Positions 2,655 through 29,652 are shown, counted from the stretch's first letter. The stretch: DNA of 64,000 nucleotides from Escherichia phage iGC_PHA_EC001 (OR437326.1); one strand, 5' to 3'. Numbers and translations: made by a program. Notes: generated by a model not told the origin, from the sequence alone.

Positions 2655-2933
2655 TTAAAATGGTTCGTTAGTCTCCATCATATATTCTGCTTCTAGTTCT
2701 TCCATATGCTTTCTAAATTGGAAAGCAATTTCTGCTACAGTTACATTTAAATCTTTTTCAAAAACTTCTGTAGAGCCTTCATAAAAACGAATACCGTCAA
2801 TTAAAAGCCCTCCGTGGTAATCCCAATCACTTTCACGAGAAAGCGGGTTAGGCTCTTCATAATAGTAATCCACCTCCACAACTAAGGCTTTCCCGTTACG
2901 AGTGGTGTATTCAAAATCAAAAGTGTTAATCAT
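2655..2933 (-). CDS. hypothetical protein (92 aa)
   Basis: ORF in gene array, stop/start abutting neighbours. Confidence 0.5.
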   Translation of the reverse strand: MINTFDFEYTTRNGKALVVEVDYYYEEPNPLSRESDWDYHGGLLIDGIRFYEGSTEVFEKDLNVTVAEIAFQFRKHMEELEAEYMMETNEPF

Positions 2934-3877
2934 TATAGCTCCTCAAATAAAAGTCTACGACGCTCATTCAACACATCAATGTGATAATGAGTCCTGACAT
3001 ACTTAGCTAATGCTAATCCTTTCTCCATGCAAACATCGGGAGCACTTAATAAGTATTCCGTAATATCTTTCCACTCGGAAGGTGTTTCAGCAAAGAATAA
3101 CAAATCTTTAAACTCTTGTGGATGATAATTCTCACGAGGAGAACAGATCAAAGGTAAACCCTTAGCACCTGCCTCAAGAATTTTAAGATTGCTTTTTGCA
3201 TTATTAAACACGTTATCAATCAATGGCGCAAGACTGATTTGATGACCATCGTAAGATTCCATGTAGTTGGCATATGGTCTTACACCTTCATAAACACAAG
3301 TTGGTGCTACATTTTCTCTGATCACAGACCATTCACGACTACTTAAAACTTCAGAATCCCTACGAAAACCACATATTGTAAGATCTTTACCAAAATCGGG
3401 CAAGATAGCCAAATCTTGTTTATGTGTTTCACTTCCAGCCCAGACTAATGGAGTTTTGGAGTAGCGATCACGGGTCAACACAAATTGACCTTCATCGTAA
3501 GGAAGTCCATTAGGGATTATGTGCACATTATCATTGTATTGTGAAAGTTCAACTTGCAAAGCAGGTGTCGTAGTTGTAACAAGATCGCTGTGCTCTAAAA
3601 ACCATTTTAAATGTTCACGAATACCTGATTCAAAAATACCTTCTAGCATGTGTCCTTTTGGAATAACTAAAGAGTCATCCAAATCCATAACCATTTTAAA
3701 ACCTAGGTTTTTAAGGGCTAAAAAGCCCTCTTTACCTTTTGTTGGCACCCCGTTAAAAACGAAAACGTTGTGTTTAGGTTGTGAAGAGAACTGCCTTGAG
3801 TAAGGCAGCACTACCCTATGGAAATCGCAGACACTATAATTGATTCCGTTACGATTGTCAAGAATTATTTGTCCCAT
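2933..3877 (-). CDS. putative GT-B fold glycosyltransferase (paralog 1)
   Basis: Clear paralog of 3885..4871 (shared CDYHR, VWAG, NxKSNLKILEAGAKG(L/I)P); C-terminal KILEAGAKGLPLI resembles GT1/GT4 family motif. Confidence 0.5.
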   Translation of the reverse strand: MGQIILDNRNGINYSVCDFHRVVLPYSRQFSSQPKHNVFVFNGVPTKGKEGFLALKNLGFKMVMDLDDSLVIPKGHMLEGIFESGIREHLKWFLEHSDLVTTTTPALQVELSQYNDNVHIIPNGLPYDEGQFVLTRDRYSKTPLVWAGSETHKQDLAILPDFGKDLTICGFRRDSEVLSSREWSVIRENVAPTCVYEGVRPYANYMESYDGHQISLAPLIDNVFNNAKSNLKILEAGAKGLPLICSPRENYHPQEFKDLLFFAETPSEWKDITEYLLSAPDVCMEKGLALAKYVRTHYHIDVLNERRRLLFEEL

Positions 3878-3884
3878 ACTTCAC

Positions 3885-4871
3885 CTACAAACTTTCAATA
3901 ACCTGGCGTCGCAACTCGTTTGCATCTGCCAGATTATAATGTGTTCGAACATGTTCAGCCAAGAACAAGCCACGATCTTCCCGATAGTTTGGATTGCGAA
4001 GAAGCTTAACAATTTCGTAATGCCATTCTGCTTTATTCTCTGCGTAAGCAACAGCGCGAGCATCTACAGGGTTAAAATAAGGTAATACCTTAGAACAAAC
4101 AATTGGAATACCTTTTGCTCCAGCTTCCAGGATTTTGAGATTACTTTTACAATTATTAAAATCGTTATCTACCAAAGGAGCTATAGCAATAGCATGACTT
4201 TCGTAAACACTCATGTAATTATCTAAATCTTTTACAGCGGCTTTATATTTGGCATTTGGTAAATTTCTGCGAATCTTAATCCACTCTTGTCCCGTGATGC
4301 TTTGTGATGCTTCATATCCCGCAATAGTAAGAAGTTCATCATCGAAAGTATTAGAGACTAATCGTAAATCTGGTTCGTGACTAGCACCGCCAGCCCATAC
4401 AACAGGGGTACCGGATGAACGATCATTTGACAAAGTGAATTGTCCGCTATCAAAAGGAAGTGCATTTCGGATCACAACGACATTTCTATTTAAGTGACGG
4501 ATCTTATATGCCAAATATTCTGTAGTCACAATAACCACATCAGCAAGCTTAACCATAGCTACAATAGCATGAGTGTTTGACTCGTATAGACTTGCTAAAT
4601 AATGCTCTGGATTAAGTTGGTAAAAATCATCTAAATCTACAACAACCTTAACACCTTGACGTTTCAAAGATAAAACGTATTCTGCACCTTTAGAGTGGAT
4701 ACGGTTAAACACAACAATATCTTTCTTAGGTTGAAAATTATTGTTGTTAAATGGCATAACAATACGATGATAGTCACAACCGCTATGAGGTTTTGCATCA
4801 ATTTTTAGTTTAGACCATTTTTTATTTGACATGTGCCAGTGCCTCCTCATAGGAAATTCGGATTTTCCCAT
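3885..4871 (-). CDS. putative GT-B fold glycosyltransferase (paralog 2)
   Basis: Paralog of 2933..3877; start uncertain (Met1 at 4871 or Met14 at 4832, both with upstream RBS-like sequence). Confidence 0.5.
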   Translation of the reverse strand: MGKSEFPMRRHWHMSNKKWSKLKIDAKPHSGCDYHRIVMPFNNNNFQPKKDIVVFNRIHSKGAEYVLSLKRQGVKVVVDLDDFYQLNPEHYLASLYESNTHAIVAMVKLADVVIVTTEYLAYKIRHLNRNVVVIRNALPFDSGQFTLSNDRSSGTPVVWAGGASHEPDLRLVSNTFDDELLTIAGYEASQSITGQEWIKIRRNLPNAKYKAAVKDLDNYMSVYESHAIAIAPLVDNDFNNCKSNLKILEAGAKGIPIVCSKVLPYFNPVDARAVAYAENKAEWHYEIVKLLRNPNYREDRGLFLAEHVRTHYNLADANELRRQVIESL

Positions 4872-5505
4872 TTTTAATATCCTCTAAAGATGCTTTATAT
4901 TCTTCCCAGTTAATCCCGATAGCAGCTTCTTTCTCTTCTTTTGTCAGATTAGCAAAAGGCATAGGGTTGTTTCCAAAAACATCGTCTGGGTGGATATAAG
5001 CCATGATACGAAGTGGACAAGGTGTTGCCTGAATACCATGATTCAAACCAGCAGCTTGCAAACGGTGTCCCCATTCAGCATCTTCAAAACCATAGCCGTG
5101 AGTGTAAGGACGGAAATAACCCATCTTCTCAACAACGGCACGAGAATACATTGCAAATTGACACATTGCAAGTTCCCAGAGAATAACTTCTCCTTTGCTT
5201 CCAACAACTTTATCTTTGAAATACTCCGGCATACCAAAGAAATCCCATCCTCCAGAGACAGCTTGATCTACAAAGTATGTTTCCCATCCCTCCATGACTG
5301 GGTAGCAATCGTCGTCAAAAATAAACCAATAATCATAACCTTCTTCATAAAACTGGTGCATAAGTTCATTCCTGGCATAAGCTACACCTTTACGATCTGG
5401 ATCGTTGAATACTCGAAAATCTGCACGTGGATCTGTTACAAGGTAGTCTTTAAGTGGACGGACACCTACAGTGATAACACCCACTCCAATTTTAATATTT
5501 TCCAT
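4822..5505 (-). CDS. glycosyltransferase family 2-like (GT-A fold)
   Basis: DYWFIFDDDCYP (DxD-type motif) and HGYGFEDAEWGHR motif typical of GT-A galactosyl/glucosyltransferases. Confidence 0.6.
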   Translation of the reverse strand: MENIKIGVGVITVGVRPLKDYLVTDPRADFRVFNDPDRKGVAYARNELMHQFYEEGYDYWFIFDDDCYPVMEGWETYFVDQAVSGGWDFFGMPEYFKDKVVGSKGEVILWELAMCQFAMYSRAVVEKMGYFRPYTHGYGFEDAEWGHRLQAAGLNHGIQATPCPLRIMAYIHPDDVFGNNPMPFANLTKEEKEAAIGINWEEYKASLEDIKNGKIRISYEEALAHVK

Positions 5506-5513
5506 TTTCTCTC

Positions 5514-6077
5514 CTAAATAGTTTTACTGTGATCATGACAGTGTAATAAATGATGTATAGACCGTTGAGGATTTGTTTGACCTAATCTGTAAATGTGAAA
5601 CAGATACATTCCCCGCATCAATCCTAACCTCTTTCCTTTTTCATGTAAAGTGCGAGAGAAAATTAAGTCGAATTGGATAGATTTTTCTTCGAAAGGAATT
5701 TCATTCCACAATGATTTTCTAAAAAGCAAGAAGAAACCTGCCAGAGGTGTTCCGAAAGGAACTTCTTCAACACTCACTTTATGATATTCTCTTGCAATCT
5801 TAGCATATTCTATATGGTTTAGAATATCTGGATCATCATTAATTTGGTTAGAGAAAAGCTGATAACCACTGCCTAACCTGTTACAAGTTGCACCTATTAC
5901 ATCAAAAGGCGGGTTTGACATAACAAGCTCTTCAAGCATAGATGGTTGATCAGGTAGGAGGAACATTGTATCGGTATCTCTTAAACACACCCAACTATCA
6001 TCTGGAAGAACGGCAATGGCTTCATTGATAGCCTTGCCGATATTTCCTGTCAGATAGGGAGTAATATAATAAATCAT
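5514..6077 (-). CDS. putative nucleotide-sugar glycosyltransferase (GT-A-like)
   Basis: N-terminal YYITPY..N.G..NEAI..D.W..LRDTDTMF pattern reminiscent of GT-A Rossmann-like start; weak. Confidence 0.4.
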   Translation of the reverse strand: MIYYITPYLTGNIGKAINEAIAVLPDDSWVCLRDTDTMFLLPDQPSMLEELVMSNPPFDVIGATCNRLGSGYQLFSNQINDDPDILNHIEYAKIAREYHKVSVEEVPFGTPLAGFFLLFRKSLWNEIPFEEKSIQFDLIFSRTLHEKGKRLGLMRGMYLFHIYRLGQTNPQRSIHHLLHCHDHSKTI

Positions 6078-6779: not shown

Positions 6780-7301
6780 TTAACTCCCCTTTGGTAGATA
6801 GAAACCATGCACTTTATCTCGATAAACAAGACGCATATCACGTTCCCAGTGTGTCCTTATATTCCGTTTCTTGAAGTATAGAGCACCTTTAGTAACATCT
6901 AAAACAGACCGCAATTCAGGAAAATGTTTCTCTAAATAAAGTAAACGCTCCGCTATTGCTTTTGCTTCCTGCCACTTATCTTTCTCTGTTACGTTAAAAG
7001 TTTTCGCATATGAGAATTGTCCTTTCTGGAACAAGACTCCTCTGACTGTGTTAGGGAAGTAGGTATCATTTCTTCTGTTGATTACCACATTCCCAACGGC
7101 ATTCATTCCTTTTTTACCCAGACCGCGACCTTCTGCGTAAATTGCACAAGCTAATAGAATTTTATCATTATATTGCTTTGTACATTTGTGAACTACTTTA
7201 GCGGTTTTTACGTTTGCAGCTTCGGCTTTCGCCACAACAGGTGTAAATGTAAAAGCAGTTAAGGATAGTAACGCAACTGTTACAAAGTTTTTTATCAGCA
7301 A
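6780..7301 (-). CDS. SleB/CwlJ-like cell wall hydrolase with signal peptide
   Basis: N-terminal hydrophobic leader ending AKA; LLACAIYAEGRG and GNVVINRRN match the Hydrolase_2 (SleB) family pattern; TTG start after RBS aaggagg. Confidence 0.7.
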   Translation of the reverse strand: MLIKNFVTVALLSLTAFTFTPVVAKAEAANVKTAKVVHKCTKQYNDKILLACAIYAEGRGLGKKGMNAVGNVVINRRNDTYFPNTVRGVLFQKGQFSYAKTFNVTEKDKWQEAKAIAERLLYLEKHFPELRSVLDVTKGALYFKKRNIRTHWERDMRLVYRDKVHGFYLPKGS

Positions 7302-7400: not shown

Positions 7401-8003
7401 TTATGGACATTCATACCATTCTTTTTTACCACCGAAGGCCATCACCACATCACAAATATCCAGACCAGCTTTACCTACACCATATGCTTTCAGCTTCCAT
7501 TCCCCATCTTCACGAACCAAGGAAGCCACGTGGCAGATTGTGTTGCCAGCTACTTCAGGAGCCAGGAAGTCAAAATCCAGAATTTCCACATTGCGCTCGG
7601 AGTCGAAGATTTTAAGCATACCTTCAGAAGCATGACCAAAACGTTTCAGACCTGTATCATCATCAATGGTCAGAACAAAGGCAATCTCTTGTGCATCAGG
7701 AGAGATTTTAGCCAGAGTAATATCAATCTGCTCCATGCTGCCAGTTCCATCACGAACATCGTCACCAGCGAAGGTAGAACGTTCAGGATCAAACTTGTTA
7801 GCATAGCAAACCAGATGACGTGCAGACAGCATTTCAGGATTACCAGCGGCATTGTGACGACAAACCAGTGCACTTACATCCAGATCCAGTTTAGAATCAG
7901 ATTTCCAAGAGAATTCCAGGCGCAGTTCTTTCAGAGCCGGAGCAACTTTCTTCAGGGAAATTTTTTCGCTAGAGCCTTTTTTCAGGGAAATTTTATCAGT
8001 CAT
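7401..8003 (-). CDS. TerD-domain protein (tellurite-resistance TerD family)
   Basis: Aligns along its length with E. coli TerD as recalled: DLDVSAL, FAGDDVRDGTGSMEQIDI (Ca-binding GDN..GDGDDE region), FVLTIDD, EDGEWKLKAYGVGK. Confidence 0.9.
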   Translation of the reverse strand: MTDKISLKKGSSEKISLKKVAPALKELRLEFSWKSDSKLDLDVSALVCRHNAAGNPEMLSARHLVCYANKFDPERSTFAGDDVRDGTGSMEQIDITLAKISPDAQEIAFVLTIDDDTGLKRFGHASEGMLKIFDSERNVEILDFDFLAPEVAGNTICHVASLVREDGEWKLKAYGVGKAGLDICDVVMAFGGKKEWYECP

Positions 8004-8018
8004 CTTTTGTCTCCTCTA

Positions 8019-8288
8019 TTATTTAAGTGTAATACCAGTTACAGTCAATTCTACTTCCAAAAGCTTAGATGTGTTTTGGATTGATACTAATTGTGCATGA
8101 TGGTTTAGTTCTACAGCAGAATAATCATTTTCCCCATCATCTACTTTTAAATAAACAATGATTTCACTAAGGTCTAAACCATTTTCGTCAAATGCATTTT
8201 CATAGACGAAAGTATCTCCTACATCCAAATCTTTAATGGTAAGGCATCGTTTATTTACTTTTTGCTCATCAATTTCGAAGTTTAACAC
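8019..8288 (-). CDS. hypothetical protein, small paralog family (copy preceding TerD)
   Basis: Paralog of 9310..9588 (shared DLDVG.TF.Y, GLD, V.L.VT.ITLK). Confidence 0.55.
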   Translation of the reverse strand: MLNFEIDEQKVNKRCLTIKDLDVGDTFVYENAFDENGLDLSEIIVYLKVDDGENDYSAVELNHHAQLVSIQNTSKLLEVELTVTGITLK

Positions 8289-8517
8289 TTCTTCCTCCTA
8301 ATGTTATCTCCGGTTTGTATATACGAAGAATTATAGCATTTTCATTTTCTTTGTCAACCCATTCTTCATAATCGGGCCATACATGAATCTCTACTCTACT
8401 TACAATATCTTCCATTCGCACAGTCCCAATGAAATACTCTTTGAGACTGCGCATAATGAAAGCTTCTCTCTCGCGCCAATAATTTTCTATGACTTGAGAG
8501 GCAAGCTCGTCGATCAT
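8269..8517 (-). CDS. hypothetical protein (82 aa)
   Basis: ORF in operon between vWA and TerD genes. Confidence 0.45.
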   Translation of the reverse strand: MIDELASQVIENYWREREAFIMRSLKEYFIGTVRMEDIVSRVEIHVWPDYEEWVDKENENAIILRIYKPEITLGGRSVKLRN

Positions 8518-9308
8518 TTTTTAGCACCCACTTTAACAACCCACTCTCCGAACTCTTCAGATAAGAGTTTGTCATAAAGCTCTGAATCTGTCAAGTCTAA
8601 ATCTTTAATGCCAATAAAACCAACATTATCATAAGCATTTGCCAGTTCTTTCAGGAAGCCAAACTTCTCATTACCAACGCCAACCATGAACCAATAAATA
8701 GGTTTATTCTTATTCTCTTCGATAAGACGACGAACAGCACTAGGATCACCATTCTCACCATCCGTCTGGAAGAATACAACACTAGGGGTAACGTCAGCAC
8801 CTGGTTCAGATACAGCTACAACTTTTTCACGCTCTACAGACACTGTTTCAGTTTTACCAAGCAGACGATTAAAGAAGCCTTTCTTTGGAGCCTCCTCTTG
8901 TACCACTTGTTTAGTGGTAATATATTTAGTAACAGTGCCAAAATACTCATCGTAGATATCCGCCATTACAGGGGCGTAATTTGTTCCACCTCCGATACGA
9001 ACATTACGCATACATTTACCAACATAGTCATCGTAAACATCTGCTGTTGCTGGAGTAAGCTCTTGGGAACTCGTATTGAAGGCCCACATATCAATTTGTT
9101 GATTATCGTCGAACAGCATACCAAAAGGAAGCAGTTTACCTACAAAATCACTCACTACCCCACTAGAATATAGACCATGCATACTACCAGAAATATCTAG
9201 AGCACATGCTACACGAAGAACAATCTTACCTTCATTCAGGTTCTTATTCTTTTTCAGAGAGAAAGCAAGGTTTTCTTGACGTTTTTTCAGGCTGATTTTC
9301 TCGGACAT
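8514..9308 (-). CDS. von Willebrand factor A (vWA) domain protein with TerD-like N-terminus (TerY/TerF-like)
   Basis: MIDAS motif DISGSM; N-terminal KISLKK..FSLKK repeats like the TerD N-terminus. Confidence 0.7.
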   Translation of the reverse strand: MSEKISLKKRQENLAFSLKKNKNLNEGKIVLRVACALDISGSMHGLYSSGVVSDFVGKLLPFGMLFDDNQQIDMWAFNTSSQELTPATADVYDDYVGKCMRNVRIGGGTNYAPVMADIYDEYFGTVTKYITTKQVVQEEAPKKGFFNRLLGKTETVSVEREKVVAVSEPGADVTPSVVFFQTDGENGDPSAVRRLIEENKNKPIYWFMVGVGNEKFGFLKELANAYDNVGFIGIKDLDLTDSELYDKLLSEEFGEWVVKVGAKK

Positions 9309-9309
9309 A

Positions 9310-9588
9310 TTATTTCTCCTTTTTAAGTGTAATATTGGTAACTTCTAAATCTACTTCCACCATATTTGTATCTGGTGGGATGCAATGAGTATAGCCTCGT
9401 TGTGCTAGTGATCCATTAATACAAATCGCACTGTTTGTGGAATTTTTAATGAACACCAAGTTACGGTAGGTATCCAACCCTGCGTCTTCATAGGCATCAT
9501 AATACATGAATGTTGCCCCTACGTCAAGATCTTCGAAAGCAATAGGTAAATCTTGACTTTTTTCTTCTTGAATATTGAATCTAAACAC
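9310..9588 (-). CDS. hypothetical protein, small paralog family (copy preceding vWA gene)
   Basis: ORF-track ORF 9310..9654 trimmed to in-frame GTG with RBS gaggagg; paralog of 8019..8288. Confidence 0.5.
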   Translation of the reverse strand: MFRFNIQEEKSQDLPIAFEDLDVGATFMYYDAYEDAGLDTYRNLVFIKNSTNSAICINGSLAQRGYTHCIPPDTNMVEVDLEVTNITLKKEK

Positions 9589-10144
9589 GCATACCTCCTC
9601 TACCAATTTTGAAGCCCAAATCGTAAGCTTCCTTAGTGATCTTTTGTAACTCACTTATAGGAAGTGTTACAAGAGGATCATCTTCTTCAATTTCCATCTT
9701 GTCATCTTCTGTTTCAATGAGAGTATTATGCACTTTGTGATAAGGGTTGTCAACACGTTTAAACTTATTCTTTTCTGTGCTGAAAAAACAATCTGGATCT
9801 TCTTCACCATCACCCCAACCTTGGTTAGGATCTCCGTCAGATTGTTCTGTAGGGATTTCACCTGTAAAGTACTCTTCCAGCACCATAGCGATACCGTCCC
9901 TTGGATTTGAGGAATGCATCAAATCACAAACCTTACTCCAATCCATAGCCCATTCAAATCGTTCACGAACGCCGTTTTCATCCTCCTTTCCAGAGAAAAC
10001 ACAACCATAACTATCATAGTTGCCATACATCTCTTCAATAACAACACCGTCCTTCAAAAGAAAAAGATAACAAGGTGATCCGTCGAAAGAAGTAGAAAGG
10101 GCAGCTTTGCCCGATTCTTTGCACAAAAAGCTAAAACAACCCAT
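9581..10144 (-). CDS. hypothetical protein (187 aa), acidic
   Basis: ORF in operon. Confidence 0.5.
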   Translation of the reverse strand: MGCFSFLCKESGKAALSTSFDGSPCYLFLLKDGVVIEEMYGNYDSYGCVFSGKEDENGVRERFEWAMDWSKVCDLMHSSNPRDGIAMVLEEYFTGEIPTEQSDGDPNQGWGDGEEDPDCFFSTEKNKFKRVDNPYHKVHNTLIETEDDKMEIEEDDPLVTLPISELQKITKEAYDLGFKIGRGGMRV

Positions 10145-10347
10145 TACAAACCCTCCTTCAGATTATCAAGAGCTATAGTGGTTTCACAAGAGTCTCCATA
10201 AGTTTTATGATGTTCCAGAAAAGCTTCGGGTCCACCCCAGTCATTATCTTGCGTATTCCAGCCATCAATAAAAGCATCTTCAATGATTGTGATCAGTTCT
10301 TGTCGGGTTAACTGGATAATATTAGGATCGTTATCGTAGTTAAACAT
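10144..10347 (-). CDS. hypothetical protein (67 aa)
   Basis: ORF in operon, start overlaps upstream stop. Confidence 0.45.
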   Translation of the reverse strand: MFNYDNDPNIIQLTRQELITIIEDAFIDGWNTQDNDWGGPEAFLEHHKTYGDSCETTIALDNLKEGL

Positions 10348-10513
10348 CTTCTTCCTCCTCTAAAATATGGAACCCGTAATTACAATAATCCTGAAAGGTT
10401 TCGTGCGCAAGATCTTCTATATCCTCTTGAGACATATCATCTTCAATTTCGATATCCACAACCTCATTGCATCCACACCAAGCAGTTTCAATATTCACTC
10501 GTAATATTTTCAT
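10340..10513 (-). CDS. hypothetical small protein (57 aa)
   Basis: Own translation MKILRVNIETAWCGCNEVVD..; TAATG coupling to upstream gene and ATG overlap with downstream gene. Confidence 0.4.
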   Translation of the reverse strand: MKILRVNIETAWCGCNEVVDIEIEDDMSQEDIEDLAHETFQDYCNYGFHILEEEEDV

Positions 10514-10713
10514 TACTCCTCCTCCTCCTCATTGAAGTCAATATCTGCAATGAGTTCGAATTTACGGAAGTTACGACAACCTTCATAAATATAACAATCA
10601 CGACAAACTGCTAGAACACTTGGGGGATATATACCTCCCATCGGTGCGAATCGTTTTTCGTCATCATAACGGACACCAATGTCTTCATCAATTATATAGA
10701 TACGGATTCTCAT
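10513..10713 (-). CDS. hypothetical protein (66 aa)
   Basis: ORF in operon. Confidence 0.45.
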   Translation of the reverse strand: MRIRIYIIDEDIGVRYDDEKRFAPMGGIYPPSVLAVCRDCYIYEGCRNFRKFELIADIDFNEEEEE

Positions 10714-11822
10714 TTACCAAGCCCTCGTTTCACAGCAGCTACCATCCCGTCTTCCAGAGATTGAACTTCATTAATATAATCAACACGAGCAGCACGGGCT
10801 TCCGTATTGATGCGGTTAGTTTCTTCCAACATCTTAACCAAGTTTTCCTGATCGTGACGCAGAGTTTCAATATCCAACACTTGACGGTTAGCCAGTGCTG
10901 CTGCTTCGATCTGATTCTGTGTGGCAAGATCGCTACCCAGTTTAATTGCTAGGTTAAATTCATCAAGAACGTTATTCTGCGTCTCTGCTGCTTTCATTTG
11001 ACGTAAGCTCTCGATATACATTGAGAAGTTAGCAGAGTAAGCAGGAATAACATTATTTACTATGTTACGCGCAGATCGCATTAAGCTTGCAGAAACTTTT
11101 TGCATACCTTGTACACGCGGTCCCATTTGGACACACAGTAGGCGCAATGCTTTTAAATCTGCAATACGAATCTCCAGAAGATCCAAAGTATCTCGGATCA
11201 CTTGTCGCTGTTCTACTGCATCTTCTGGAAGAGCAGCCAAAGCTTGTTCTTCTTTTTCATAGGTTGCTGTTAGAAGCTGCATATCTCGGTTCAAACTTGC
11301 AGCATATTGTCCAATAGCTTGATGTAGCTTTTCAAGATATACCAAGGAATCTTCTTCTTTGCGAATATCCATTTGAAGGTTCTTTACCAACTCTTCAATA
11401 CGGTTATTAACATTATCAAACTCCCCAAACAGGTCTTCTTTCATACCCATAACTTTTTTAATGAGTTTAGTAATACCCTTGCTTTGTTTAATAGAGTTTG
11501 GATCAAGTTGTTTTGCCTGTTTAATCAAAGCTGTGAGTCGTTCACTCATCTGATCGCCTTGATTACTACGTTGATGTTTTAATACCTCGGCATTCAAGGA
11601 GCGCAAGGTTGTTCCTGCCTCTGCCCCAATCTCTTCGATCTCTTGTCGGGTCATAGAAGGCAAAACTGGAACTTCTTGCGGTGCCGCTGGTGCATAAACA
11701 GGACTGGCATCTAACACGCTTGGAGCGAATACAGATTTACTTGCATCTGTTGTTGCAGCAAATACGCTCATTTCAGGCTTCTTCTGACCACCAGTAGCTG
11801 CTTTTAAAAATGGACTTGTCAT
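10710..11822 (-). CDS. TelA-like toxic anion resistance family protein
   Basis: About 370 aa coiled-coil protein; N-terminal region (..KHQRSNQGDQMSERLTALIKQAKQLDPN) matches my recollection of the TelA N-terminal signature (D.GE....LT.L....K...P); size and architecture fit the TelA/KlaA family. Confidence 0.6.
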   Translation of the reverse strand: MTSPFLKAATGGQKKPEMSVFAATTDASKSVFAPSVLDASPVYAPAAPQEVPVLPSMTRQEIEEIGAEAGTTLRSLNAEVLKHQRSNQGDQMSERLTALIKQAKQLDPNSIKQSKGITKLIKKVMGMKEDLFGEFDNVNNRIEELVKNLQMDIRKEEDSLVYLEKLHQAIGQYAASLNRDMQLLTATYEKEEQALAALPEDAVEQRQVIRDTLDLLEIRIADLKALRLLCVQMGPRVQGMQKVSASLMRSARNIVNNVIPAYSANFSMYIESLRQMKAAETQNNVLDEFNLAIKLGSDLATQNQIEAAALANRQVLDIETLRHDQENLVKMLEETNRINTEARAARVDYINEVQSLEDGMVAAVKRGLGK

Positions 11823-12409
11823 TCTTCATTCTCCTCTTCTGCATCTCTTATATATGGTGAAACACCGTACTCTTTAGCTACTTTAACCCAATCGTCCCAT
11901 TTATACAACCATAATTTTCCTTCGGTCCCTTCTTTATCTGATTTCAACCACATATTAGGTTGCTTACCTGGGTACATGCGATTAGGTTTACGATTATAAC
12001 CTCTAACACATCTTGTCGCAAACCTATCTACCAGAACAAGAACATATTTATACTCGTGGTTCAACGGCTCTTTGGAAGTGGCTTTAGGATTAGCCCCTAA
12101 TTCTGCTGCCAGTTTTTGCCAATGAGCACCGTGCCTACTAAACTTACCCATACAACCATCAATAGCATGAGCAATTTCGTGCTTCATTGTATCCACGATC
12201 ATATCTCTTGTGGAGTTCTTATGCAAGTGCCAATTTACAACAACAATTTTATCTCGGTAGTTGCACCAACCGAAAGAGTTATTCACTTTGTTTCTAACAC
12301 AAGCTTTATATCCTGCTTCACGTAACATGTTGTAGTAAACAGGAAAATCTTCTTTTATTTCCTGCATCACTTCCCACCACAAGAGTTGCAAGTCTCTCTC
12401 GGTATGCAT
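11819..12409 (-). CDS. SprT-like zinc metalloprotease domain protein
   Basis: HEIAHAIDG (HExxH) within a SprT-like context (TMKHEIAHA..G..SRHGAHW). Confidence 0.6.
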   Translation of the reverse strand: MHTERDLQLLWWEVMQEIKEDFPVYYNMLREAGYKACVRNKVNNSFGWCNYRDKIVVVNWHLHKNSTRDMIVDTMKHEIAHAIDGCMGKFSRHGAHWQKLAAELGANPKATSKEPLNHEYKYVLVLVDRFATRCVRGYNRKPNRMYPGKQPNMWLKSDKEGTEGKLWLYKWDDWVKVAKEYGVSPYIRDAEEENEE

Positions 12410-12412
12410 AAC

Positions 12413-13006
12413 TTACACCTTAAAAGCGAAATGCGTGGTCGTGGCTTCAAAATCAGGGCCAGATAAACTTGCACTGAAATCTGAAATATTTGTAATTAAA
12501 AAGCTTTTATGCATACCTAACACAGCCACGCTTTCAATATCTTCTACTAACATTTCAATCATGTTAGAAACATGGCTGAACGTATAGTTTTGTTTTTTGA
12601 TGGTGTAGAAAGAAAGACTCCCACCTGCTGTATAAGATACCTCTTCAAAATCTTTAATCGTATATTGTGTGCCATCAGTAAAGAAAATGGTAGCTTTATT
12701 AGTAGCACGTTTCTTGTTTTTTGGTCCTTTTTTACGTTTACTGCGAGTAGGCAAACCGTTTGGAAATACTGTAGCTACAAATTCTTCAGGAGAAACCTCC
12801 TTACCGAAATCATAACCGTAAGAAACAGCGTCTATAAACTCGTCGTCTTCATTTTTAAAATAATGGAAATAGGGCCAATTTGAGAGATTATCGAGCATCT
12901 TATGCTCATCCACAGCAGAGAACGTATCCCTCAAAGCGCGTGTGATTTGCAAAGCATTAGGCAAACTTTTAACACCTGTAATGGAAGTACGAATAGAAAT
13001 TGTCAT
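12413..13006 (-). CDS. hypothetical protein (197 aa)
   Basis: ORF in operon. Confidence 0.5.
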   Translation of the reverse strand: MTISIRTSITGVKSLPNALQITRALRDTFSAVDEHKMLDNLSNWPYFHYFKNEDDEFIDAVSYGYDFGKEVSPEEFVATVFPNGLPTRSKRKKGPKNKKRATNKATIFFTDGTQYTIKDFEEVSYTAGGSLSFYTIKKQNYTFSHVSNMIEMLVEDIESVAVLGMHKSFLITNISDFSASLSGPDFEATTTHFAFKV

Positions 13007-13020
13007 TGTTTTTCTCCTTA

Positions 13021-13458
13021 TTAACGTCGCTTGCTACGAGATGAACTCTTTTTACTTAAAGGGCTATTGTAAGATTTGCGAGTTGTATAGCTACTATTTG
13101 TTTTAAAAGTTTGTCTCGGCTTTTCATAAGTTTTTATCTCTTGTTTAGGCTTACCATAAAAATTAGTTTTCGGTTTAGGTGTATTATAATGCTTATTAAT
13201 AATCGTTCTGTTATCGTTATAATCCCCACTGTTACGATTACTACCACCACTCATCATATGCCCTAACAACATACCTGTAGCAAACTCACCAACACCGCTA
13301 CTACTAGAACCGCCACCATTGTTGATAATAGTTGTATCTCCGTCAGATCCTTGTTGAGCGTATTGTTGAGGAGGTTGTTGGTATTGTGCAGGATTTGTTT
13401 CATCCTCGCAAGCTGTTAAAAAGATACAACCAATTAAAATCAGGGCTAGTTTTTTCAT
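13021..13458 (-). CDS. putative lipoprotein, Gly/Ser-rich with basic C-terminus
   Basis: ORF-track ORF trimmed to Met26: MKKLALILIGCIFLTAC = signal peptide plus lipobox (LTAC); RBS gaggaaag upstream. Confidence 0.55.
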   Translation of the reverse strand: MKKLALILIGCIFLTACEDETNPAQYQQPPQQYAQQGSDGDTTIINNGGGSSSSGVGEFATGMLLGHMMSGGSNRNSGDYNDNRTIINKHYNTPKPKTNFYGKPKQEIKTYEKPRQTFKTNSSYTTRKSYNSPLSKKSSSRSKRR

Positions 13459-13645
13459 ATTTGCTTTCCTCATTTTGACTATTAATACATCTGTGTTTGA
13501 AATCTCCAGAGAAGCAATAAAGTTGCTCTCCATCTCGGTATAAACTCACTTTACTGCCGTTGATTACGCTTGTCAATACAAAAATTACAACAAACAACCC
13601 TATTGCAAAACAAATATTTTCAAACACAATCAACAAGTATTTCAT
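13400..13645 (-). CDS. possible small membrane protein (overlaps lipoprotein gene start)
   Basis: Hydrophobic N-terminus; overlap makes it doubtful. Confidence 0.25.
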   Translation of the reverse strand: MKYLLIVFENICFAIGLFVVIFVLTSVINGSKVSLYRDGEQLYCFSGDFKHRCINSQNEESKYEKTSPDFNWLYLFNSLRG

Positions 13646-13992
13646 TTTAAAAATACCTCATCATCAGTTTCATTATCCCAGAAGAACAAATCCCAACCAT
13701 TCGGATCATTCCATTTGGCTGCTGGAGAAGTCCATATTTGTTCGATATCAATATTCAAAACTTCACCGTTTCGTTTTGAAACAGCTTTAGTTAATTCCCA
13801 ACGAGATACAGGCTCTACTTCCCCTGAACCACTCCCACAACAAGCTACCACGTTAGGAGGCAAATTAATTGGATCTTTGGTCACGATCATAACGCTTACC
13901 CCAGGGTAAACTTTTGAAAGATAATCTAAAACGTAATCCACATCACCAGATAAATCCCAAACAAGTTCTTGAATTTCATCAAAATTATTCAT
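13642..13992 (-). CDS. hypothetical protein (116 aa)
   Basis: ORF-track ORF. Confidence 0.5.
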   Translation of the reverse strand: MNNFDEIQELVWDLSGDVDYVLDYLSKVYPGVSVMIVTKDPINLPPNVVACCGSGSGEVEPVSRWELTKAVSKRNGEVLNIDIEQIWTSPAAKWNDPNGWDLFFWDNETDDEVFLK

Positions 13993-14008
13993 AAGTCTCT
14001 CCTATAAA

Positions 14009-14026
14009 ATAGCCTCCCGAAGGAGG
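14009..14026 (-). terminator. hairpin terminator after the TerC gene
   Basis: agcctcc-cgaa-ggaggct hairpin, T-rich on minus strand. Confidence 0.5.
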
Positions 14027-14034
14027 CTCATCTA

Positions 14035-15009
14035 TTAAACAGCAGCTTCTTCTTTTTCAGGGAAGATAAAGCTTGCAATAACACCAAGAGCTAATGTGCC
14101 TAGAACAATCATCAGACTTACGTTAGGGGAAATATCATGCGGGAGGAATGACCACTTGGCATGAAGTGTTTCACCGAACGGGTGATACATAAGTTTAGCA
14201 CCGACAAATACCAGAACCACAGCAACAGCTTTCTCTAAGTGAACCAGATATTTCACAGCCACACTTAACACAAAGAAAAGTGCACGTAAACCAAGAACAG
14301 CCATCAGCATTGCAGAATAAACTAGCAGAGGTTCTTGTGTCACACCGATCACAGCCGGAACTGAATCAAAAGAGAAGACAATATCTGTAAGCTCAATAAC
14401 AAACACACAAAGAAGAGCAGGAGTTGCATATTTAATACCATTCTTAATGGTGATGAACTTTTCACCATCCAGTGCATTGTGCACAGGCAGAACTTTACCT
14501 ACTAAACGAACAGCCCAATGCTTAGAGTAATCAATATCCTCTTCTTCGTCACCACCTTTGATGATAGCCACGGCAGACCAAGCTACAATCAAACCGAACA
14601 ACACTTGGACCGACCAATGAAGGTTAAACAAAGCGGTCCCTGCTGCAACAAAAATACCTCGGAAGACAATGGCTCCTGCAATTCCCCAAAGTAAAATCTT
14701 ATGTTGGAGATGTGTGCTCTTAATTCCAAAGCTTGCAAAAATTGCCATGAACACCATCAGGTTATCTACAGAAAGACTCTTTTCCAACACATAGCCACTT
14801 AGGAAAAGCGCGGCAAACTCTTTACCATGTTCTACCCAAATGAATGCGTAATATCCTAAAGCTAAAGCAATCCAAAAAACAGACCAAAGCAAAGCAGATT
14901 TAATTCCAATTTCTTTATTCTCTTTATGACCAAAGAAATCAATACCAATAGACAATGCTAAAATACCAACTAAAACAACTACATCAATAATGGGGAAACC
15001 GAGTTGCAT
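14035..15009 (-). CDS. TerC-family integral membrane protein
   Basis: Multi-pass hydrophobic protein with the family signature EKSLSVDN. Confidence 0.8.
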   Translation of the reverse strand: MQLGFPIIDVVVLVGILALSIGIDFFGHKENKEIGIKSALLWSVFWIALALGYYAFIWVEHGKEFAALFLSGYVLEKSLSVDNLMVFMAIFASFGIKSTHLQHKILLWGIAGAIVFRGIFVAAGTALFNLHWSVQVLFGLIVAWSAVAIIKGGDEEEDIDYSKHWAVRLVGKVLPVHNALDGEKFITIKNGIKYATPALLCVFVIELTDIVFSFDSVPAVIGVTQEPLLVYSAMLMAVLGLRALFFVLSVAVKYLVHLEKAVAVVLVFVGAKLMYHPFGETLHAKWSFLPHDISPNVSLMIVLGTLALGVIASFIFPEKEEAAV

Positions 15010-15026
15010 TCTTTTCTCCTCTCTTT

Positions 15027-15085
15027 GCGGGGAACTATTCCCCGCTTCATGTGATATATCTTACTCTTTTTAAGAACTATGTCAA
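15027..15085 (-). promoter_or_regulatory. early-type promoter plus 5-prime stem-loop cassette (minus-strand copy) driving TerC gene
   Basis: Minus strand: ttgaca-N16-taagat, then gcggggaatagttccccgc hairpin, RBS agagaggag, ATG; same architecture as the 18 plus-strand cassettes. Confidence 0.6.
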
Positions 15086-15088
15086 CAC

Positions 15089-15310
15089 TTATTTTGTTGA
15101 ATGAGAGGAAAAGATTCCTCGTAATACAGCCAGAATAAACGAAACACAAACCACGGTCCAGAAGGTTACTGGGACAGTGATATCTGCATGACCCATAACT
15201 TCAGCAACATAGTTGTAAGCCAGCAACAGTAACCAAGCTGGAATCAAACTAAGCATAAAAGCAATAACAAAAAAGCTTACCACTGCAACAATACCTGCAA
15301 AAACACCCAT
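15089..15310 (-). CDS. small hydrophobic membrane protein (73 aa)
   Basis: Two predicted TM helices. Confidence 0.45.
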   Translation of the reverse strand: MGVFAGIVAVVSFFVIAFMLSLIPAWLLLLAYNYVAEVMGHADITVPVTFWTVVCVSFILAVLRGIFSSHSTK

Positions 15311-15322
15311 ACTAATCTCCTC

Positions 15323-15796
15323 TTAAAGTTTATAAATAGTCACATCGTGACCTGTTTTTACTAAAGTTTCTTCAATCATCACTTGGATGATAGCCCAATT
15401 ACCTCCAGCATATCCAGCGCCAATCATAGGTAAGCCGATCTTACATTTTTGGTCACGGAGAAGCAAATCATTAGCCATAGCTATTAGTGCATCATAAAGT
15501 GCATCATAGTCCAACTGACGACCTTTAGCATTGTATCCGTAACGGTATTGCCCGTATAGATTATATACCAAAGGGTCTGATTGTTCGTCTGGCACCCCTA
15601 AACTAAAACAACCTAGTTTACTTTGATCACCAGCCATTGTGTCTAAGTCTGCTGCATATGCGTAAGGAAATGCTCGTTTGATTTGTGGGGCAATACCTGC
15701 CCCCATATTACACATACAATTGCAACAATGAGCAATAACAGTTACTTCACCTGCTTTAGCGGCATCAATAAGATTACCTGTTTTAATTTTAAGCAT
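15323..15796 (-). CDS. macro domain (ADP-ribose binding/processing) protein
   Basis: Trimmed to Met36 with RBS aaggag; VIAHCCNCMCNMGAGIA and IGLPMIGAGYAGG resemble macro-domain motifs. Confidence 0.55.
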   Translation of the reverse strand: MLKIKTGNLIDAAKAGEVTVIAHCCNCMCNMGAGIAPQIKRAFPYAYAADLDTMAGDQSKLGCFSLGVPDEQSDPLVYNLYGQYRYGYNAKGRQLDYDALYDALIAMANDLLLRDQKCKIGLPMIGAGYAGGNWAIIQVMIEETLVKTGHDVTIYKL

Positions 15797-15809: not shown

Positions 15810-16637
15810 TTACAGAATGTGTTGTTTTGTGTAACGATCCAAGAATTCAAAGTTTTCAGCATACTTTGAAATTCGGTTGTAACCTTCTCCCAAGCATCCA
15901 AAGAAAAGTTGCTCTACATAGTAATGTGGCAATTGGCTAAGAATGATTTTGAAGTCTTCATGATTTTGGCCCATAAGATACTTAATAGGACGAACAAGAC
16001 ACTGTGCATCACGTTCTTCATTAATCATTTTAACAAACGCTTCTGGTGTATTAATGTAGTTAAAATTCAGTTTAGCTTCGGTATCTGCTTGATTACCTTC
16101 GTATTTTGCAAAATACAGGAAGTAAACATCATTTTTAACTTGATTTTCATCAAGGATCTCAATCAGTTTGTCTTCATGCGTTCCAGTGATATTTACATCA
16201 TCAATGAATACAAGCTTCTTATCACCCCAGAATTCTTTGTTGCAGTAGAATGTATCCCCATCAATAAGTTTCTTACGACTAGCTTTATCCAAGAAACCAT
16301 AATCGTTGATATAGCTAACTTTACGATGAATAATGTCCAGTTCTGCTGAACGACCTTGATCATATTGTGATTGCAACATATTAAAGTAATTAATAAAATG
16401 ATCTGTCATCATTGTTGCAGCATTATGCACATGGTTATAAGGAGAAGGAATGATAACAAATTGTTCCCCAATATGTTTCATTGCCACTTGAGCAAAAAAC
16501 TGAAGTGCCAATTCTTTACCCATACGACGCGCAGCTTGGTTACTACCAAATTTCAATTTTGAATAATCTTGGATATCAAAAGTAGCAGTTTCCAGGTCAT
16601 CAAATTTATTTGCAAAAATTTGAGTTTGATTACGCAT
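15810..16637 (-). CDS. phosphoribosyltransferase (type I PRTase fold) domain protein
   Basis: PRPP-binding motif KKLVFIDDVNITGTH. Confidence 0.6.
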   Translation of the reverse strand: MRNQTQIFANKFDDLETATFDIQDYSKLKFGSNQAARRMGKELALQFFAQVAMKHIGEQFVIIPSPYNHVHNAATMMTDHFINYFNMLQSQYDQGRSAELDIIHRKVSYINDYGFLDKASRKKLIDGDTFYCNKEFWGDKKLVFIDDVNITGTHEDKLIEILDENQVKNDVYFLYFAKYEGNQADTEAKLNFNYINTPEAFVKMINEERDAQCLVRPIKYLMGQNHEDFKIILSQLPHYYVEQLFFGCLGEGYNRISKYAENFEFLDRYTKQHIL

Positions 16638-17286
16638 TTACAATTTCTCCTCTTTTAAGTTTCTCTAGTAAGTCGTTAGGGTTCTTAATATGACAGAAGT
16701 TAAATCCTAAGTCAACACATTTTCCATCATATTCTTCACTATCGCCTACGTGCAACACTTCGTGCCCTAACAGAGGGATCGGAGAATACGTGAGCGTGCG
16801 AGCAAAGAATCGCGGATCTGGTTTACAAAGTAAAGCTTCATCCGAGAAATGGGTGAACTCAAAACAATTCCAACTATCAAACTTACAAGCACGACGCAGG
16901 ATATCCCCTGATATGAAGTTGGTATTGCTCTTAATACTCAAATCATAACGCCCCGAAAGATACAGCAAGTACATCGGCAGATCCACGGCTACGTGTGGTG
17001 GAAACTTAAGGAACCACTGTTCACACTCGAAACGAAGCTTTGCAGACTTCCAAGGCGTTATCCCAAGTTCAGAACCAAGTCTTTCCCAGGCATATGCTGC
17101 ACACTCGGCTTTGCCTTGAAGTGCTGCATTATCCAGTTCCTTTTTGATCTTTTTATAAGCTGCTCTTGCTTCCACTTCCGTAATATCTCCATATTTTGCG
17201 ATAGTCCAGGCTCGCATGTCTGCATAATTGGAGTTTGCTGTGATCAGTGTGTTCCATACATCAAAAGAGATATGTTTAATAGTCAT
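16630..17286 (-). CDS. HAD-superfamily hydrolase (subfamily IA-like)
   Basis: Motif I FDVWNTL, motif III-like KPDPRFF, motif IV HVGDS. Confidence 0.6.
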   Translation of the reverse strand: MTIKHISFDVWNTLITANSNYADMRAWTIAKYGDITEVEARAAYKKIKKELDNAALQGKAECAAYAWERLGSELGITPWKSAKLRFECEQWFLKFPPHVAVDLPMYLLYLSGRYDLSIKSNTNFISGDILRRACKFDSWNCFEFTHFSDEALLCKPDPRFFARTLTYSPIPLLGHEVLHVGDSEEYDGKCVDLGFNFCHIKNPNDLLEKLKRGEIVNA

Positions 17287-17287
17287 A

Positions 17288-17893
17288 TTAAGCCCACCAT
17301 GCGTCTAAGTTAAGATTACTGTCCACTACCACTTGTTCTATGTGGTAGCCTTTTATCTGTATCCCACTGTTCAAGAGCATATCATACGCTTCATTGAAAC
17401 GCAACTTATCTTCTGCGGAATATAAGCGAGCATTATAAAATCGGTAATCAACTTCTTCAGCATTAGAAGAAATACGGAAGAAGTTTGTTTCTACTTCGGG
17501 ATCACTTGCTGAAGTCTTAATGTGAACTTCTCCGTAATTTTCTTTACTTAGATCCATGAAAAGAACACAGGCAACATGTTTAAACATTCGTTCCAGTTTG
17601 TAACGAACAACATTGAAACCTGCATTCTCAAGTTTTTCTACACACTGCAACATTAAAGTAGTGTCGAGATCGCTTTGATACTTTGTTAACATACGATCAC
17701 GTTGAGACTTTGTATCCCGATGTAAATCAATTGTTGTGCATTTGGCACCAATAATCTTAGCTGCTTTCATCAACTCTTCAGAACTAACGTTAGATAAAGT
17801 AAGATGAAAATGGGCTTTCCACACTTTTTTAGCAGGGACACCAAAAGATTTATCCCCACTATTCGGCATGTTGACTACTACACTATGTTGCAT
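17288..17893 (-). CDS. hypothetical protein (201 aa)
   Basis: One HxTx motif (HLTL) reminiscent of 2H phosphoesterases but the second motif is not evident; unassigned. Confidence 0.45.
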   Translation of the reverse strand: MQHSVVVNMPNSGDKSFGVPAKKVWKAHFHLTLSNVSSEELMKAAKIIGAKCTTIDLHRDTKSQRDRMLTKYQSDLDTTLMLQCVEKLENAGFNVVRYKLERMFKHVACVLFMDLSKENYGEVHIKTSASDPEVETNFFRISSNAEEVDYRFYNARLYSAEDKLRFNEAYDMLLNSGIQIKGYHIEQVVVDSNLNLDAWWA

Positions 17894-29538: not shown

Positions 29539-29652
29539 TTGTTTTCTCCTTTTGTTTGGTAGTAGTTGATCTTAACAAGATTAAAAAGTATGTCAATACT
29601 TGATCTGAAATTATTTTCAGGTATCATATATGAACATTAACAAGAGAGGTAG
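29539..29652. promoter_or_regulatory. divergent (strand-switch) control region
   Basis: Only gap between leftward and rightward gene blocks; AT-rich with ttgatc/ttaaca and tatcat hexamers on both strands. Confidence 0.4.

Follow-up and report, generated by a model that had tools for sequence, protein, structure and literature searches.

An abbreviated Ter system, conserved as an accessory module of the Stephanstirmvirinae (the phAPEC8 and phi92 group), lies on the minus strand of a 64,000-nucleotide stretch of Escherichia phage iGC_PHA_EC001 (OR437326.1), the whole of which is hereafter called the window. That identification can be made with high confidence; the fuller account, in which the encoded proteins act at the inner membrane of the infected cell, has about an even chance of being right. 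The module is real and conserved, and it is of a kind already annotated in GenBank and described computationally in phages. Its core genes and the promoter- and terminator-like elements among them are as follows:

14035-15009, minus strand: TerC/Alx-family integral membrane protein (PF03741, 3e-40, 138 bits against a cut-off of 27.8)
10710-11822, minus strand: TelA-family protein (PF05816, 3.2e-33, 115.7 bits against a cut-off of 30)
8514-9308, minus strand: stand-alone TerF-type vWA protein (PF10138, 7.8e-38, 131 bits against a cut-off of 29.4)
7401-8003, minus strand: TerD-domain protein with a divergent Ca2+-binding loop (PF02342, 3.2e-28, 98.9 bits against a cut-off of 25.3)
15058-15085, minus strand: sigma-70-like promoter upstream of terC (TTGACA-16-TAAGAT at 15085-15058)
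14011-14028, minus strand: intrinsic-terminator-like hairpin directly after terC (AGCCTCCTTCGGGAGGCT, then a T-rich tail)
8330-8357, minus strand: perfect sigma-70 consensus with an extended -10 (TTGACA-16-TGcTATAAT, 12/12)

A reading made without database searches (the sequence-only reading) had placed TerD, vWA, TelA and TerC genes, together with a SprT-like neighbor, at these positions and in this shared orientation, and profile searches bear out each family call, all of them above the Pfam gathering cut-offs; a Shine-Dalgarno-like site precedes each gene of the module. TerC also passes the NCBIfam TerC/Alx model (TIGR03718, 319 bits against a cut-off of 246), is polytopic with multiple hydrophobic segments in a hydropathy scan, and shares 47-48% identity over its full length with the TerC of IncHI2 plasmids; it belongs to a family of inner-membrane metal-ion exporters, and an export role is predicted. 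TelA begins with a disordered N-terminus that gives way to a long alpha-helical bundle lacking a transmembrane segment (AlphaFold2 model and hydropathy), and a literature search for TelA structure was uninformative. The vWA protein carries the metal-ion-dependent adhesion site (MIDAS) motif that had been claimed for it, in complete form (DxSxS, here DISGS at residues 38-42, plus GGGTNY and QTDG), matches IncHI2 TerF at 7.6e-23, and has homologues within the Ter clusters of Caulobacter jumbo phage CcrBL9 and Pseudomonas phage phiPsa374. The TerD-like N-terminus once ascribed to it shrinks to a motif of about 20 residues shared with TerD (MxxKISLKK; pairwise E 0.013), and with no Pfam TerD match on the protein it is not a full-length TerF, which would combine TerD and vWA domains. 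TerD itself does align along its length, with residues 5-183 matching the solved Klebsiella TerD 2KXT (1.5e-15) and a further match to 3IBZ (2.9e-14).

The separate promoter proposed for terC is likewise supported, since the site matches the 'putative host dependent promoter' annotated at the homologous position in the phAPEC8 record. Between this promoter-like site and the ribosome-binding site, the terC 5' leader (15010-15057, minus strand) holds a GC-rich hairpin, GCGGGGAATAGTTCCCCGC, with no Rfam match. A yybP-ykoY Mn riboswitch of the host alx type was considered before terC and rejected, there being no Rfam match at the gathering score or at E values up to 10. The perfect consensus at 8330-8357 stands 36 nt upstream of the gene pair formed by 8019-8288 and terD, inside an 82-aa open reading frame (ORF), and is the only perfect match in the window, where 0.10 are expected and 8 of 100 shuffles gave at least one. 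A second strong promoter-like site at 9753-9725 (11/12) falls about 135 nt upstream of the start of a small phrog_11278 gene (copy A, below) and the vWA gene. Directly downstream of terD is a SleB-like cell-wall hydrolase (endolysin; 6780-7301, minus strand) with a TTG start and a hydrophobic, signal-like N-terminus, which suggests a secreted or membrane-tethered endolysin.

The module reaches upstream, beyond the genes first noted, to about position 17286. In order of transcription, the genes preceding terC encode a HAD hydrolase, a phosphoribosyltransferase (PRTase), a macro-domain protein and a small protein with two transmembrane segments:

16630-17286, minus strand: HAD-superfamily hydrolase (Pfam Hydrolase 4e-4, sub-threshold; phrog_14393 3e-117; weak YjjG/REG-2 HAD matches)
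15810-16637, minus strand: ComF-like phosphoribosyltransferase, PRTase_3 (PF15610, 2.2e-41; intact phosphoribosyl pyrophosphate loop FIDDVNITGTHE)
15323-15796, minus strand: DarG-like macro-domain protein (Pfam Macro 1.2e-4, 22.5 bits against a cut-off of 22; phrog_335 1e-55)
15089-15310, minus strand: 73-aa protein with two hydrophobic segments (hydropathy; 60% identity to its Bas62 orthologue)

The HAD and PRTase genes form an overlapping pair. Motif I of the hydrolase is non-canonical, reading FDVWNTL (DVWNT, without the second Asp), and is invariant in an alignment with orthologues of Justusliebigvirus, Rhizobium-phage and Xanthomonas-phage origin. Pairs of HAD and PRTase_3 genes in the same order, also overlapping, occur in Rhizobium phages, the Xanthomonas jumbo phage XaC1 and plasmids of Rhizobium/Sinorhizobium at 35-52% identity (comparison loci L002:4540-6055, L003:8333-9816, L013:8370-9840 and L014:8346-9819). 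Phosphoribosyltransferases and HAD phosphoesterases have been predicted to form the signal-synthesis arm of Ter systems, and the Ter system of Acinetobacter phage ME3 includes both (Iyer et al. 2021, PMC7824862). The pair is a candidate for producing a small molecule of nucleoside-like character. The HAD gene is immediately preceded by that of a 201-aa protein (17288-17893, minus strand; phrog_22504), which aligns over almost its entire length with two PADLOC 'AbiEi' models (3.6e-13), matches no Pfam or PDB sequence, and gave an uninformative fold search. Its AlphaFold2 model (predicted local distance difference test score 82) shows ferredoxin-like folds in tandem, whose beta-strands bear the invariant residues H28/H30/T32 and H124/K126, and the protein could mimic an antitoxin or act as a small-molecule enzyme.

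Conservation was gauged against Justusliebigvirus Bas62, the sister-genus reference from the phi92 group. Amino-acid identity to Bas62 is 81% for TerD, 78.5% for TelA, 76% for a 187-aa protein lying between the vWA and telA genes, 71% for TerC, 66.5% for vWA, 65% for the PRTase (45-52% in Rhizobium and Xanthomonas phages), 50% for HAD and 49% for macro, and the Ter core is better conserved than most adjoining ORFs. Missing from Bas62 are the SprT-like gene, the 201-aa protein, a 116-aa protein, three small ORFs and one phrog_11278 paralogue. The comparison of neighborhoods among related phages that had been proposed as a check therefore sustains the retention of TerC, TelA, vWA and TerD and removes SprT and several small ORFs; from this pattern the functional core is TerC, TelA, vWA and TerD, with HAD, PRTase and macro alongside.

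The genes could be horizontally acquired, neutral cargo without a significant role in the phage life cycle, and the patchy distribution of these families among phages fits such a history. This explanation is highly improbable here, and it is contradicted by the selection data: dN/dS (nonsynonymous over synonymous rate, against Bas62) is 0.07-0.15 for TerC, TelA, vWA, TerD and PRTase (0.13 for TerD and 0.09 for PRTase), comparable to the neighboring endolysin, with synonymous sites near saturation in the same comparison (pS 0.56-0.74). The genes are moreover kept in both genera and in some 150-220 phage records (homologues of TelA in 224, TerC in 176, PRTase_3 in 156 and TerD in 148), the core is better conserved than most adjoining ORFs, and comparable clusters have come together independently in further lineages of phages. 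In CcrBL9 the genes form a tight telA-vWA-terC-terD block, and phiPsa374 has telA, a small ORF and terF, followed by terC and terD. That the four-family cluster recurs in lineages unrelated to one another speaks for a functional unit and, with the strong purifying selection, bears out the view that the grouping of TerC, TelA, vWA and TerD is no accident. With four core families within 8 kb, conserved across two genera and recurring in CcrBL9 and phiPsa374, the locus has the neighborhood of a Ter system in the sense of Anantharaman, Iyer and Aravind, for whom the term denotes a functionally linked network.

The sequence comparisons show to which families the proteins belong, how the genes are ordered, where promoter and terminator elements lie, that the genes are conserved, and that the set recurs independently in other phages; the timing of expression, complex formation, ion transport, the small-molecule link and the phenotype are inferred. 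In the account that we favor, host RNA polymerase would transcribe terC from a sigma-70-type promoter of its own, plausibly at an early stage, and TerC would enter the inner membrane. TelA, vWA and TerD would come together at or under the membrane, joined by metal-dependent (MIDAS) contacts; a nucleoside-like ligand may come from the HAD-PRTase pair; and the infected cell would undergo a change in its envelope or its divalent-cation state. The most likely pay-off would be the inhibition of incoming phages and colicins, as for plasmid ter loci, amounting to superinfection exclusion, while stabilization of the envelope until lysis would be a secondary benefit, additional or alternative. The host-type promoter and the terminator that bracket terC support this account, as do the small membrane proteins and the lipoprotein within the block, the recurrence of the four families and the purifying selection. 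Tellurite resistance, phage inhibition and colicin resistance are the three phenotypes reported for ter loci on plasmids, and a Klebsiella terC knockout shows sensitivity to Zn, Mn and Te together with larger plaques (PMC12054061).

Several observations weigh against superinfection exclusion by such a membrane complex. Each protein of the IncHI2 ter locus was searched by phmmer against all window ORFs of at least 40 aa (E<0.01), and TerB, which is considered a core sensor of bacterial Ter systems, has no match. TerC occurs alone in many other phages. The structure prediction proposed for TelA yielded an all-helical model, and the fold search with it returned no specific analogue. The Ca2+ loop of TerD reads GDDVRDG--TGSMEQ against the canonical GDNRTGEGDGDDE of plasmid TerD/E/Z, with three Asp positions replaced and the DLD motif kept. 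The canonical acidic loop of the TerD structure literature, GDN(R/L)TG(E/A)GDGDDE, is visible in the aligned plasmid TerD/E/Z; CcrBL9 TerD retains it, and phiPsa374 TerD does so for the most part. Among the neighbors checked, no Ter genes are annotated or detected beside the HAD-PRTase_3 pairs of Rhizobium phages, XaC1 and plasmids; in the present lineage the pair is genuinely tied to the Ter core, but the tie is not an obligatory one. Finally, exclusion brings less benefit to a phage that is strictly virulent and has a short latent period than it would to a plasmid or a pseudolysogen.

The predicted transport activity could instead serve the infected cell itself. On that explanation TerC would export Mn2+, Zn2+ or Ca2+ or metalate secreted proteins, TelA, vWA and TerD would buffer the envelope stress of infection, and the cell would be kept energized and intact until programmed lysis, possibly with tuning of the lysis timing of the adjacent signal-peptide endolysin. 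We regard such host maintenance as possible, if on balance unlikely. It accords with the place of TerC in the Alx subfamily, with the Mn(II) export and metalation of secreted proteins known for TerC-family proteins (PMC12054061 and references therein), with the Zn and Mn tolerance conferred by terC (PMC12054061), and with the position of the module directly upstream of the SleB-like endolysin and its hydrophobic N-terminus. It also accords with the absence of the Mn riboswitch of host alx, given which terC expression would be independent of metal status. However, no metal-dependent phage enzyme was linked to the module here, the metal loop of TerD is degenerate, and the association with PRTase, HAD and macro is left unexplained.

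A role for the enzymes is central to a further possibility, in which the HAD-PRTase_3 pair (with macro) would make a nucleoside-like molecule; the divergent TerD would sense this molecule, which would gate an inner-membrane complex of TerC, TelA and vWA. This reading is unlikely; if true, it would describe a phage-encoded, metabolite-controlled switch for envelope remodeling, serving superinfection immunity or lysis timing, and would give the first mechanistic handle on any Ter system.

The macro protein raises the question of counter-defense. It is closest to DarG macrodomains (NCBIfam 1.9e-8, PADLOC 6.5e-10) and is a candidate for removing ADP-ribose from DNA or protein. On this view macro could reverse DarT-type modification, PRTase and HAD could make or destroy nucleotide-derived immune signals, and the Ter proteins could hamper Ter-like or membrane-acting systems of abortive infection in the host. 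Macro homologues lie near the Ter genes of phiPsa374 (L005:3729-4262, 2.8e-31) and near the HAD-PRTase genes of XaC1 (L003:17293-17748), the neighboring 201-aa protein has its 'AbiEi' match, and Iyer et al. (PMC7824862) discuss systems by which phages act against immune signals derived from nucleotides and NAD+. Even so, we find counter-defense quite unlikely. PADLOC-DB 2.0 gave no match for TerC, TelA, vWA, TerD, PRTase or HAD, its marginal matches being to SprT and to a 197-aa protein, and the 201-aa protein is missing from the sister genus and its fold search is uninformative. The hosts given in the records show that K-12 supports the growth of such phages, and E. coli K-12 is not known to carry a ter operon, which also counts against this idea.

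The remaining ORFs of the block, all on the minus strand, are these:

13400-13645, minus strand: 81-aa single-pass membrane protein (hydropathy; 49% identity to its Bas62 orthologue)
13021-13458, minus strand: putative lipoprotein of 145 aa (lipobox LTAC, MKKLALILIGCIFLTAC; low-complexity basic C-terminal part)
12413-13006, minus strand: 197-aa protein (phrog_27550; 42% identity over 96 aa to a 283-aa protein of Bas62)
11819-12409, minus strand: SprT-like metallopeptidase (PF10263, 4.2e-9; HExxH read as HEIAH at residues 77-81)
9581-10144, minus strand: 187-aa protein (76% identity in Bas62, as above; 314 homologues)
9310-9588 (also given as 9310-9654), minus strand: phrog_11278 small protein, copy A (4.8e-50), directly upstream of the vWA gene
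8019-8288, minus strand: phrog_11278 small protein, copy B (7e-45), directly upstream of terD

The lipoprotein recognized by the sequence-only reading has a legible lipobox, 36% identity to its Bas62 orthologue and no Pfam family. The SprT-like gene, whose stop overlaps the telA start, had been counted as part of the module, an assignment that does not survive: it is absent from Justusliebigvirus, and phages of Klebsiella, Enterobacter, Cronobacter and Vibrio, 170-250 kb in size, carry its distant homologues, these groups being missing from the TelA and TerD matches. Most of the small ORFs are no conserved parts of the module either. The 187-aa protein was likewise rejected as a new Ter component. 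Its N-terminal domain (about 135 aa), covered by no Pfam family, has 50-65% identity to more than 300 metagenomic proteins, some of them marine, and is widespread in phage contigs without Ter neighbors; in the two contexts inspected, the homologues sat in phage-like replication or early-gene regions. The phrog_11278 copies are paralogous (33% identity, 3e-13) and look like a local duplication, Justusliebigvirus having one copy and lacking copy B. Neither phrog_11278 nor the 187-aa protein, the 197-aa protein or the lipoprotein has homologues in the Ter clusters of CcrBL9 or phiPsa374, and all were set aside as conserved Ter partners. We propose that the SprT-like protein, the lipoprotein and the small ORFs either travel with the module as passengers particular to the lineage or serve as accessory proteins of the envelope.

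The module sits in a Phapecoctavirus region with 98-99% identity to more than 60 genomes, including phAPEC8, ESCO13, ZCKP1 and SF1-1. Relatives of the phAPEC8 type belong to the Stephanstirmvirinae and are myoviruses of E. coli, virulent and about 150 kb in size, and the virulent context assumed at the outset holds. All genes from window position 1 to about 29,500 are on the minus strand. The strand switch at about 29540-29650, with minus-strand genes to its left and plus-strand genes to its right, is a divergent transcription boundary and coincides with a change in the sign of GC skew near 30 kb. Farther downstream of the module, four glycosyltransferase-like genes stand in a row (2933-6077, minus strand), one with a weak match to the TET-associated glycosyltransferase family PF20691 (1e-3), and their targets may be DNA or the cell surface. 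Some records matching the region bear unexpected host names: 'Campylobacter phage' B15 and C3 and 'Acinetobacter phage ABPW7' are near-identical to Stephanstirmvirinae coliphages in the region or its proteins, and 'Pseudomonas phage PsgM04F' has a protein identity of 72-91% (accessions of the oddly labeled records: MG065650, MG065656, OP562383 and OR584014). Judged by this similarity, the host labels of the Campylobacter-, Acinetobacter- and Pseudomonas-named records look doubtful.

How Ter systems work has been unresolved since the 1990s, and the exact function of the ter operon was still called unknown in a 2025 paper (PMC12054061). The idea, voiced from the outset, that the module acts on a membrane-stress or metal pathway is plausible. 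A pared-down, four-family Ter set without TerB, strongly conserved in a virulent coliphage, offers a tractable test-bed for Ter biology. Members of the phage group are included in the BASEL collection and grow on K-12, itself not known to carry a ter operon, and deletion and expression genetics should therefore be straightforward; such genetics could tell whether Ter proteins exclude phages, manage metals or stabilize the envelope.

Set beside the plasmid and chromosomal terZABCDEF loci (IncHI2 R478-type, E. coli O157:H7), which come with a divergent operon of biosynthetic genes, the phage module shares the presence of a PRTase-containing enzyme set adjoining the Ter genes. Only TerC, one TerD/E (1e-19) and the vWA part of TerF among the IncHI2 proteins have a match in the window under the phmmer search described above; the ATP-grasp protein, PRTase, HpcH aldolase, StiP, DUF4236 and the further TerD paralogues (TerZ/TerA/TerE) have none, and with TerB also lacking, the description of a near-complete set was too generous. 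The phage PRTase is of another family (PF15610), with no detectable similarity to that of IncHI2, and the phage vWA lacks the TerD domain of TerF, whereas TelA is present in the phage and not in the 19-kb IncHI2 stretch inspected.

The yceCDEFGH-type operons of Bacillus subtilis bring together TerD paralogues, TerC and TelA in one orientation and are linked to envelope stress, and the kilA-telA-telB genes of RK2 offer a similar parallel. Compared with these, the phage adds vWA and the PRTase, HAD and macro proteins, has a single TerD, and lacks TelB and KilA; its regulation runs through phage or host sigma-70 promoters and not through extracytoplasmic function sigma factors. Compared with the stand-alone Mn(II) exporters of the TerC family (E. 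coli Alx, B. subtilis MeeF/MeeY), the phage TerC passes the TerC/Alx subfamily cut-off and is a predicted transporter; its gene lacks the yybP-ykoY riboswitch and is embedded in a Ter-type neighborhood.

The closest parallels are found among phages. Although the sequence-only reading did not identify the combination as a described phage system, Ter gene sets of virulent phages have been reported (Iyer 2021, PMC7824862; Bonilla 2021, PMC8386662; Warring 2022, PMC9796965), in jumbo phages as well as some other, related tailed phages of smaller size, with superinfection exclusion as the hypothesis (PMC7824862), and in Klebsiella phage phiKp34 (PMC8386662). GenBank already labels the genes 'TelA-like protein', 'integral membrane protein TerC', 'TerD family protein', 'VWA domain-containing protein', 'SprT-like domain-containing protein' and 'tellurite resistance', and the literature on Phapecoctavirus Ter genes or transcriptomes yielded only a passing mention of 'tellurite resistance'. 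The present module differs from the other phage operons in having its genes scattered across about 8 kb, between small ORFs particular to the lineage, where theirs form a tight telA-vWA-terC-terD block, in placing terC first with its own promoter and terminator, and in its degenerate TerD Ca2+ loop, which is canonical in CcrBL9 and largely so in phiPsa374; the SprT-like insertion upstream of telA is confined to Phapecoctavirus. These differences notwithstanding, CcrBL9/CcrColossus, phiPsa374 (Otagovirus), phiKp34 and ME3, the last of which shares PRTase and HAD as well, carry the same TelA, TerF-type vWA, TerC and TerD, and all of them are virulent.

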